IMG/VR virus record: IMGVR_UViG_3300024996_000004
DNA length: 64,000 bases
From: a virus
Strand: one strand, 5' to 3'
The position numbers were made by a program, and so were the translations under genes. The notes below the pieces were generated by a model. That model was not told the DNA's origin and searched no databases. It was given only the letters and a program-made list of their open reading frames with translations. Of the stretch, positions 2,181 through 40,202 are shown piece by piece (position 1 is the stretch's first letter; the number at the start of each line of letters is the position of its first letter).

Positions 2181-2876
2181 ATGAACATAATAGCAATCGA
2201 TCCTTCATTAATATGTACTGCTTTAGTGATTAATGATAAAAAATTCATTTACGTACAAGAAAGTAATGTGTTATCAGAAAAAACTGGAAAAATGAAAAAA
2301 TGGTTTGAATTGTGTTCACCGTTCATTACTTATCGTTACATAAATTATATAAAAGCTTTGATTCATTCTGATCAAGAGATTTATAAGCTTATTCAATATA
2401 ATGAAATAACTGATTTAATCATATCAGACATAATATCGAATATTAATCCATCTGAAGATACAAAAATAGGTATTGAAGGATATAGCTATTCATCATCTTC
2501 AGGACCATTGATTGATCTTGTTACTTTTAGCACTTTATTGAGGTCAAAGTTATATACTAAATTATCTAAAAATATATCAATACTTCCACCTTCAAGTCTT
2601 AAACTTGCGGCTGCAAAATTAACCTATCTGCCTATTGTTAAAGGTAAAAAAGTATTAAAGTATGAATATCGAAATGAACAAGGTATTTCAGGTGGAAAAT
2701 TTAGAAAACCTGAAATGTATAAAGCTTTGATAGACAATCAACAACTGAAAAGTTCATGGGTTGAATTCCTACGGTTACATCATTCGGATATATGTGGTTT
2801 GAATACAGTTCCTAAACCTATTGAAGATATGAACGATGCCGTTCTCTTATATGAAATACTAAAATGCAATAAATAG
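2181..2876 (+). CDS. RuvC-like (RNase H fold) Holliday junction resolvase
   Basis: MNIIAIDPS (catalytic Asp), IGIEGYSY (Glu), and a C-terminal DMNDA. The ATG at 2181 is preferred over the track start at 2133. Confidence 0.7.
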   Translation: MNIIAIDPSLICTALVINDKKFIYVQESNVLSEKTGKMKKWFELCSPFITYRYINYIKALIHSDQEIYKLIQYNEITDLIISDIISNINPSEDTKIGIEGYSYSSSSGPLIDLVTFSTLLRSKLYTKLSKNISILPPSSLKLAAAKLTYLPIVKGKKVLKYEYRNEQGISGGKFRKPEMYKALIDNQQLKSSWVEFLRLHHSDICGLNTVPKPIEDMNDAVLLYEILKCNK

Positions 2877-2899
2877 CTTGATAATCGGTATTTTTAAGT

Positions 2900-4078
2900 A
2901 TGGCATCAACAAAAGAAATATTTTCAGAAATAAATCAAGCTATAAATTCGGATAATTCATCAAAAAGACCTACAATGTCTTGGATTGCTGGTGTTTTTAA
3001 AAAAATACGTGAATTTAATAGAATGGAAAACGCTCTAGAACGTTCTGATGAATTGAATGATGATGTAAGAGAGAACTACATTAATTCTTTGAAACTTCGT
3101 GATATTGCTTTAGAAAATGGATTGATGACCCGAGAAATCAAAGACAATGGATTTCCAAAATATGAAGTTACGGATAAAGGTAGTAAATTTCTACAAAATC
3201 TGGCTAAACATATTCAATCTTGGAATTCTATTAACGATTTAACCTTTAAACAATTACGCAGTAAATATCAAGAAGGTAAATATTCTGTTGATCAAGAATG
3301 GGCTGCATCACTTCCAGAAAATGAACAGGAAGCCTTAAAAATTTATTCACAATTAACTAATAAAGAATTCAGATTTCTTATTGGGTTAAAAATGGATAAA
3401 GATCGTAAACAAAGCTATACAAGCCGTATTGAAACTTTAGAAGAAAAGGATTTCGAATCTTATAGTTTATTAAGAGATATTGGTATTATTACTAAAAATA
3501 ATACTATTAACAATAATGTTGTATCAAATTTATTTTCAACATTATCAAAGTATGACGAAGCTCATTTGCGCTCTTTTAACAAATCCGTAAGCAAAAGTGC
3601 CAATGACATATCAGCTAAGAAAGGATTAGCTAGAAACTATCTTAATAAAAGTTTAGATAATACTTCCTCTAGGAGTTCAGATATTGGTATTCGTGCTAGA
3701 GAGTTTATAGAAAATTCTAATGATTGTGTTAAATCATGGATCGTATCTTTATCTTCTGGCCGCAATGCTAAATGTGGTCAAGTAGATTTTGAAGAATTGA
3801 GATTACAAAATATTATTACATCTACACAATCTAAAGAACTAACCAATTTTGGTAACATTGTCGCCTCAATTATTAAAACTGATCGTGATATGAGTTCATT
3901 CAACGATCAAGATACAGTCAATTCTAGAATGCCTATGAATTCTGTACGTGCTAATGATAGACAACGACAACGTTCCAAAATTCAACAAGGACGAGCAACA
4001 GAGTTCAATAAACATTTACATAAAGTAAAAGAAAGCAAAAATCTATCCTTCAAAAAATATTTGATAGAATCGAATTAA
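2900..4078 (+). CDS. Hypothetical late (possibly virion-internal) protein
   Basis: 392 aa ORF after AATAAATA (2868-2875). It has winged-helix-like segments (GL...YEVTDKGSKFL). No family recognised. Confidence 0.6.
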   Translation: MASTKEIFSEINQAINSDNSSKRPTMSWIAGVFKKIREFNRMENALERSDELNDDVRENYINSLKLRDIALENGLMTREIKDNGFPKYEVTDKGSKFLQNLAKHIQSWNSINDLTFKQLRSKYQEGKYSVDQEWAASLPENEQEALKIYSQLTNKEFRFLIGLKMDKDRKQSYTSRIETLEEKDFESYSLLRDIGIITKNNTINNNVVSNLFSTLSKYDEAHLRSFNKSVSKSANDISAKKGLARNYLNKSLDNTSSRSSDIGIRAREFIENSNDCVKSWIVSLSSGRNAKCGQVDFEELRLQNIITSTQSKELTNFGNIVASIIKTDRDMSSFNDQDTVNSRMPMNSVRANDRQRQRSKIQQGRATEFNKHLHKVKESKNLSFKKYLIESN

Positions 4079-22063: not shown

Positions 22064-22110
22064 TATAAATAAATTTAAAGCTTGACAGTTGTAAGAATTA
22101 CAGTAATAAT
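22064..22110 (+). promoter_or_regulatory. Tandem late (TATAAATA 22064-22071) and sigma70 (TTGACA 22082-22087) promoters
   Basis: Both lie upstream of the prkA operon. Confidence 0.55.
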
Positions 22111-39834: not shown

Positions 39835-39842
39835 TATAAATA
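39835..39842 (+). promoter_or_regulatory. gp55-type late promoter (TATAAATA)
   Basis: Perfect match, 12 nt upstream of tRNA-Val. Confidence 0.6.
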
Positions 39843-39854
39843 AACATACATTTT

Positions 39855-39928
39855 GCTCGATTAATTTAATGATAAAATGCTGATTTTACATGTCAGACAC
39901 GATGGTTTGATTCCATCATCGAGTACCA
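39855..39928 (+). tRNA. tRNA-Val(TAC), AT-degenerate
   Basis: Acceptor GCTCGAT/ATCGAGT, anticodon arm CTGAT-TTTACAT-GTCAG, T-arm GATGG-TTTGATT-CCATC, CCA. The D-loop GG is replaced by GA. Confidence 0.7.
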
Positions 39929-39934
39929 AAATTT

Positions 39935-40148
39935 GTAGAATCCACTGCAAAAGGTTAACTAATAATCCATAAATTAGACTGATCGCAATCAGACGCGAAG
40001 TGCGAAGGTGCCACTGCTACCACAATCGATAAGTGTAGTGGGTCAACCAGAAGACCGTGTTCTGGATATCTTTGTTGATGATATAAATTCAACATTCTAG
40101 TAAACTGCTGGTGATGTAACTAGAATAGGATAACCAGCACCCATTTTT
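39935..40148 (+). ncRNA. Unassigned structured RNA with 3' H-type pseudoknot
   Basis: GC-enriched, with no ORF. Hairpins at 39959-39977, 39979-39992, 40011-40041, 40047-40065, 40073-40094 and 40095-40125. Loop TGCTGGT (40106-40112) pairs with ACCAGCA (40133-40139). Confidence 0.6.
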
Positions 40149-40202
40149 TATATAAAAATTTAACACTGATCTAAATAATTTTAATAAAATGGATAATTAA
40201 TC

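Follow-up and report, generated by a model that had tools for sequence, protein, structure and literature searches.

Two non-coding RNAs of unknown function, RNAC (species 1, 139 nt) and RNAD (species 2, 119 nt), are encoded in the tRNA cluster of phage T4 (PMC3014915). The GOLLD and ROOL RNAs, ornate large RNAs from phages and prophages whose function is likewise unknown, contain pseudoknots and often have tRNA islands as neighbours; a tRNA-Met gene precedes one GOLLD, and expression of GOLLD increases in late infection (bioRxiv 10.1101/2024.12.08.627333). Permuted tmRNAs of XacN1-like phages (RF04321/RF01850) also contain a pseudoknot and lie near tRNA genes. In bacteria, the small RNA 3'ETS-leuZ is freed from a tRNA precursor by processing nucleases and then acts in trans, and tRNA-spacer-derived RNAs of this type are short, weakly structured base-pairing sponges.

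Here we describe an element that directly follows a tRNA-Val gene in a phage genome and very probably encodes a structured non-coding RNA. The window, the whole 64-kb stretch of DNA that was analysed, is part of a 104.9-kb IMG/VR virus record, in which the element is present once. The major head protein of the window phage shares 65% identity with its counterpart in XacN1, a Xanthomonas jumbo phage, and 85-89% with those of several uncultured phages of 170-350 kb, indicating that the window is a piece of a giant myophage genome of the T4 superfamily in which the tRNA island is dispersed. Homologues of the element were found in G001 (a complete 340-kb IMG/VR phage), L314 (a divergent Logan contig) and L330 (an ENA contig cut by its end). 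The locus comprises the following features:

39835..39842, + strand: TATAAATA, T4-type late-promoter-like motif 12 nt upstream of tRNA-Val, with putative promoter activity
39855..39928, + strand: tRNA-Val(UAC) with encoded CCA (Rfam RF00005, 57.8 bits), AT-rich, with atypical D and T loops
39929..40139, + strand: structured non-coding RNA (very probably), whole element, 211 nt; homologues in G001, L314 and L330; no Rfam match
40140..40150, + strand: A/U-rich tail CCCATTTTTTA, where processing probably occurs; no canonical terminator

The element shares its position with the T4 RNAs, the first of which directly follows tRNA-Arg on the same strand, as the element directly follows tRNA-Val. However, it has no sequence or structure similarity to them. 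RNAC ends in a tRNA-like T-arm (GGTTCGAATCC), whereas the element lacks a T-arm, ends in a pseudoknot and is longer. Homology to T4 rnaC/rnaD was rejected, as R1, one of the two covariance models of the element (R1 and R2) used in our homologue searches, found no match to it in the T4 region; with filters off, its best score in the T4 tRNA region was 6.3 bits and lay elsewhere. Compared with GOLLD and ROOL, the element is three to four times smaller and does not match their Rfam models. It resembles the permuted tmRNA in having a pseudoknot, a similar size, the same phage group and a place near tRNA genes, but it has neither a tRNA-like domain nor a tag frame. An assignment as tmRNA, standard or permuted, was rejected, with ARAGORN and Rfam both negative; true permuted tmRNAs in related phages score 89-125 bits, and G001 encodes a separate true permuted tmRNA 235 kb from its element. 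Whereas RNAs of the 3'ETS-leuZ type are short and weakly structured, the element has 210 nt with seven helices and a pseudoknot. We also rejected a T-box riboswitch, given no RF00230 match, no terminator called and varying downstream genes. More generally, no Rfam family matched 39929-40139 even at E<=10, none in Rfam 15 came near or above its gathering threshold for the element, and the L314 copy was also without match to GOLLD/ROOL (E<=5), T-box, ribozyme or any other Rfam families. The element has its place in a loosely defined kind of RNA, phage RNAs embedded in tRNA clusters, together with T4 RNAC/RNAD and GOLLD/ROOL.

As a separate observation, XacN1-like phages have permuted (two-piece type) tmRNA genes as well as one or two CUA-anticodon tRNAs, which are of the amber-suppressor type and carry the ARAGORN label 'Pyl':

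L168:1501-1659, 2655-3075 (XacN1); L175, L184; L180:1445-1787; G001:89806-90109: tmRNA/CUA-tRNA loci

A preliminary description of this DNA, made from its letters, had proposed an unassigned structured RNA of ~210 nt that ends in an H-type pseudoknot, lies behind a tRNA-Val gene and a late promoter, is free of open reading frames and is richer in GC than its flanks. As possible roles it named a ribozyme, a nuclease decoy or an exonuclease-blocking element. The tRNA-Val, the TATAAATA motif and the absence of a known family were all borne out, as was the difference in composition (39-43% GC in the element versus 16-30% in the flanks), a value that places the element only within the top ~6% of 150-nt windows of the 64-kb window. 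The reading frames present are all short, and none is kept in the homologues. Four members and strong covariation now stand behind the proposed RNA.

The Rfam RF00005 match to tRNA-Val spans 39855-39925, its CCA ends at 39928, and the element starts at the next base, as it does in G001 and L314. This tRNA was not called by ARAGORN, and it was the sole match to a tRNA model. Its sequence is strongly AT-rich, with a D loop (AAUGAUA) from which the usual GG is missing, a T loop reading UUUGAUU and a G.U pair at position 1-72. The tRNA may be weakened, or may serve chiefly as a processing handle. The TATAAATA motif occurs five times in 64 kb (at 22064, 27917, 39835, 41882 and 48147), versus 17 copies expected by chance on both strands, and is thus strongly depleted. 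All five copies are on the + strand and, compared with the list of open reading frames, intergenic. Two of them stand before tRNA genes, which suggests late expression of these tRNAs. In phage RsoM2USA, the same motif lies ahead of tRNA-Val and of tRNA-Thr; the gap between these tRNAs was rejected as a homologue of the element because it is a protein gene. From the layout of the window locus, we infer that the motif may function as a promoter and that the element would be cotranscribed with tRNA-Val.

The three homologues bring the known members to four, one of which is a fragment. The copy in G001 (L082:1526-1735) is 74% identical to the window element. L314:3626-3827 is a divergent full-length copy (R1: 50.5 bits, E = 5e-13), and L330:1-60, cut by the contig end, retains the pseudoknot end only (R2: 18.8 bits, E = 3e-5). 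The latter two were reached via ClpP homologues and then by fetching their contigs. The ClpP gene of the window itself recurs unchanged in at least four independent samples. Four such contigs (L309-L312; one Logan, one JGI and two ENA) carry this gene together with the element and show no differences over the part covered, all 211 nt of the element being spanned by the Logan contig only.

In every member whose contig includes the junction, tRNA-Val(UAC) lies directly 5' of the element. On the 3' side the arrangement differs. ClpP follows directly in the window; in G001, tRNA-Thr and tRNA-Gln lie downstream and ClpP is absent. In L314, the element occupies the gap between tRNA-Val and tRNA-Gln(UUG), ending 8 nt short of the latter, and in L330 tRNA-Gln(UUG) starts 7 nt past the element end. 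Both contigs have tRNA-Thr, tRNA-Gln(CUG) and ClpP further downstream; ClpP directly follows tRNA-Gln(UUG) in L314, and in L330 all three tRNAs precede it. As the protein genes flanking tRNA-Val and the element vary among phages, the two travel as a unit. Within this unit, the element is 74% identical between window and G001 versus 62% for tRNA-Val, and the three tRNA-Val sequences (window, G001 and L314) differ strongly. The spacer between element and tRNA-Thr in G001 measures 86 nt (L082:1736-1821).

Further searches revealed a narrow distribution. Exact-motif scans of IMG/VR returned the G001 copy only, the remainder being chance matches or a Ser/Thr-rich repeat gene; a relaxed scan for the pseudoknot motif gave five further matches, all by chance. 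Motif scans yielded no matches in JGI metagenomes and two in bacterial genomes, both by chance. In a blastn search against INPHARED, tRNA-Val was matched and the element was not. R1 and R2, run over ~30 related phage records plus XacN1, Xoo-sp13, RAS14 and RsoM2USA, gave one weak match, inside a gene. An IMG/VR scan for layouts of two tRNAs around a ~200-nt gap found mostly further tRNAs in the gaps and no relative of the element, 130 sampled IMG/VR inter-tRNA gaps (from 80 loci scanned with R1) contained no match to it, and a protein search of IMG/VR with the ClpP of the window gave no matches. The element is missing from G004 and XacN1, which are both complete and closely related. In the sister arrays of L313 and G003, tRNA-Val(UAC) and tRNA-Gln(UUG) are 9 nt apart without the element, indicating that it is dispensable for this phage type. 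Overall, the element represents a narrowly distributed RNA family that is not yet catalogued, found in a small group of XacN1-like giant phages.

Phage genes for ClpP-like proteases were located in or beside tRNA arrays in most of L313, L314, L316, L317, L324-L326 and L330. At other ClpP loci, the gene lies just downstream of a peptidyl-tRNA hydrolase (PTH2) gene, and TelA, R2K and WGR-PARP genes are frequently nearby. In the ClpP-linked tRNA array of another phage, a gap of ~340 nt between tRNA-Cys and tRNA-Arg (L324:1755-2094 and L325:510-849) holds no tRNA or called gene. Neither R1 nor R2 matched there; this gap could contain a different RNA.

The element folds into seven consecutive hairpins (P1-P7); its seven 3'-terminal bases pair with the loop of P7 in an H-type pseudoknot. 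Relative numbering takes 39929 as 1:

39932-39938/39945-39951 (relative 4-10/17-23), + strand: P1 hairpin TTTGTAG/CTGCAAA, 6-nt loop with conserved UCC
39959..39977 (relative 31-35/45-49), + strand: P2 hairpin CTAAT/ATTAG, variable
39983-39987/40001-40005 (relative 55-59/73-77), + strand: P3 hairpin TCGCA/TGCGA, 13-nt conserved loop
40011..40041 (relative 83-89/107-113), + strand: P4 hairpin CCACTGC/GTAGTGG, 17-nt loop
40047..40065 (relative 119-124/132-137), + strand: P5 hairpin CCAGAA/TTCTGG, 7-nt variable loop
40073..40094 (relative 145-150/161-166), + strand: P6 hairpin TGTTGA/TCAACA, 10-nt loop TGATATAAAT
40095..40125 (relative 167-173/191-197), + strand: P7, pseudoknot stem 1, TTCTAGT/ACTAGAA, 17-nt loop
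40106-40112/40133-40139 (relative 178-184/205-211), + strand: pseudoknot stem 2, TGCTGGT/ACCAGCA, AGGA in the joining loop

P1 forms in window, G001 and L314, with two double and two one-sided changes across the three sequences. At the site of P2, each member has a hairpin of unrelated sequence (7 bp in G001, 6 bp in L314). P3 shows three double compensatory changes relative to G001 and reads CCAUA/UAUGG in both G001 and L314; a 3-bp extension (39978-39980/40007-40009) is possible. P4 is invariant between window and G001, and in L314 five of its seven pairs are changed on both sides and its loop has 10 nt. In P5, a C-G pair is replaced by U-A in G001, and the helix reads GUCGA/UCGAU in L314. 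Five of the six pairs of P6 are changed on both sides across the three sequences, and the loop pattern UGAU..AAAU is also present in L330. P7 carries double changes in G001 and L330 and retains five of seven pairs in L314, with a loop of 17 nt in all four members. Stem 2 forms all seven pairs in each of the four members; a G-C pair is exchanged for U-A in L330 and a U-A pair for U.G in L314, and the stem is otherwise invariant in window, G001 and L314. Pseudoknot geometry is constant: both stems measure 7 bp, and the loops have 4, 6 and 6-7 nt. Comparison of the homologous sequences thus supports an H-type pseudoknot, both stems of which are kept.

All complementary segments listed in the preliminary description exist in the sequence, and six of its eight proposed pairings hold up: P2, P4, P5, P6, P7 and the pseudoknot pairing TGCTGGT/ACCAGCA are kept in homologues through compensatory changes. 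The other two do not. A CTGAT/ATCAG hairpin is invariant in the close copies and lost in L314, and is displaced by the covarying P3, which forms from its loop. The pairing of GTGGGT with ACCCAT is not kept, ACCCAT reading AAAAAT in G001. Two helices, among them P1, had been missed.

Between window and G001, we counted 11 double compensatory changes and two one-sided changes, and every pair remained intact. When the same substitutions were scattered at random in 200,000 simulations, at most nine doubles arose, no run was free of broken pairs, and on average 12 pairs were broken. Across three sequences, for the helices aligning cleanly in all of them, 96.8% of cells were paired and 14 pairs were changed on both sides, which none of 500 shuffles reached; when partners were slid by 1-3 columns as a control, the count was 0-5. 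A script check found all helices to form in all members, the sole weak case being P7 in L314 (five of seven pairs). Folding energy by itself was not significant relative to shuffles (z = -1.8 for the window copy, and -0.85); it is the covariation, not the folding energy, that makes the case for more than chance. Only the + strand folds better than shuffles, and the G.U pairs sit on this strand; we therefore assigned the RNA to the + strand.

Three further candidate structures were rejected, each because it is not kept in L314: the long-range helix GGTTA/TAACC preferred by ViennaRNA, a kissing-loop dimer via AUCGAU in the P4 loop (the sole self-complementary loop motif) and a mimic of the CCA end by UACCAC.

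The conservation, fold and position of the element are the observations from which we infer its transcription, processing, stability and action in trans. In our preferred model, to which we assign a probability of roughly 0.55, an RNA of ~205-211 nt from the tRNA operon is transcribed with the tRNAs, released by host tRNA-processing enzymes and active in trans as a stable RNA. Its wedge position suggests that it would be made within a multi-tRNA precursor and excised by the enzymes responsible for maturation of the tRNAs on either side. Within the operon, the gene would begin at the base that follows the CCA of tRNA-Val(UAC) and stop a few bases short of the next tRNA or ClpP, and it would be transcribed together with the tRNAs, in the window from the T4-type late promoter. 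A cut in the U-rich stretch directly past the tRNA CCA would generate the 5' end; to generate the 3' end, RNase P would cleave at the next tRNA and the RNA would be trimmed back to the pseudoknot. The released RNA would be protected by the P1 hairpin on its 5' side and the pseudoknot on its 3' side, and would then act in trans as a stable RNA. The pseudoknot domain is the most conserved part (CUGCUGGUG, AGGA and the final CCAG). As most other loops vary in L314, we expect this domain to provide the recognition surface and the other hairpins a scaffold; the domain is probably the part recognised by a protein or other partner. In a bolder version, which we consider distinctly unlikely, the element would represent a new class of phage RNA that matures via the host tRNA-processing machinery and whose pseudoknot domain (CUGCUGGUG ... 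AGGA ... CCAG) either binds and neutralises a host factor or is catalytic; examples of such a factor would be a defence nuclease directed at tRNA and an enzyme of the tRNA 3' end.

The same location between a tRNA CCA end and the next tRNA start, with a spacer of 7-8 nt, would also suit a structured trailer or spacer that serves the neighbouring tRNAs in cis and is discarded after processing. It would, for example, shield the precursor from 3' exonucleases or time the maturation of tRNA-Val, and a 3' pseudoknot could indeed block 3'-to-5' exonucleases. However, sister arrays work without the element, with a spacer of just 9 nt in L313, and seven covarying helices with conserved loops over 210 nt far exceed the needs of a spacer. 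The element is, moreover, more conserved than the tRNA that precedes it. On balance, we regard a cis-acting trailer as unlikely.

The sequence that follows stem 2 bears on the possibility of a regulatory leader, similar to a riboswitch or attenuator, in which stem 2 and a U-rich tail would control read-through into ClpP or the downstream tRNAs. After stem 2, the window reads CCCATTTTTT, G001 AAAAUUUU, L314 ACAAUUUU and L330 CAAAUAU. An A/U-rich tail thus recurs (AUUUU, 3 nt past stem 2, in G001 and L314; AUAU in L330). It is not a canonical terminator, however: none was called at the 3' end of the element, 3-4 nt separate the stem from the U-rich run, L330 lacks this run, and homologues have tRNAs directly downstream. 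Such a leader might possibly sense a tRNA 3' end via UGGU in the P7 loop, as the tRNA-Val genes end in (U)ACCA, the complement of UGGU(G), but a tRNA contact of four bases would lose out to stem 2, which pairs over seven. Furthermore, the gene downstream is ClpP, tRNA-Thr or tRNA-Gln depending on the phage, and no T-box or other riboswitch matched at E<=10. Regulation of read-through is therefore a highly improbable role.

Slightly less credible still is a role in processing the tRNA transcript as a new catalytic RNA, self-cleaving or otherwise. A compact multi-helix fold with a pseudoknot and conserved unpaired segments, located exactly at processing junctions, would fit such an activity. Nonetheless, the element has no likeness to any Rfam ribozyme family, its loops are mostly variable in L314, and tRNA-processing enzymes already account for both ends. 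The variable presence of the element among related tRNA arrays might also reflect a DNA-level site or the remnant of a mobile insertion between tRNA genes instead of a functional RNA. We consider this very improbable, as compensatory changes are maintained across diverged members, the G.U pairs are strand-specific (the opposite strand would have A.C mismatches), and terminal repeats and an associated nuclease or transposase gene are absent. Finally, we give almost no credence to a gene for a ~30-residue peptide at 40008-40100 on the + strand: this frame is open in window and G001 with a stop at the same place, but it lacks a usable ribosome-binding site, its start codon differs between the two, its dN/dS is 0.55 with substitutions by codon position of 8/4/7 that do not favour the third position, length differences of 7 nt and 2 nt break it in L314, and coding does not explain the pairwise complementary substitutions.

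Structured RNAs beside phage tRNA genes recur without explanation, T4 RNAC/RNAD for decades and GOLLD/ROOL more recently. The small size of the element described here makes it accessible to chemical probing, structure determination and pull-downs; the adjoining tRNA genes fix its boundaries, and covariation backs its secondary structure, pseudoknot included. The tRNA arrays of sister phages without the element provide possible comparisons. If a partner is found, the element could reveal the purpose of this tRNA-linked class of phage RNAs.
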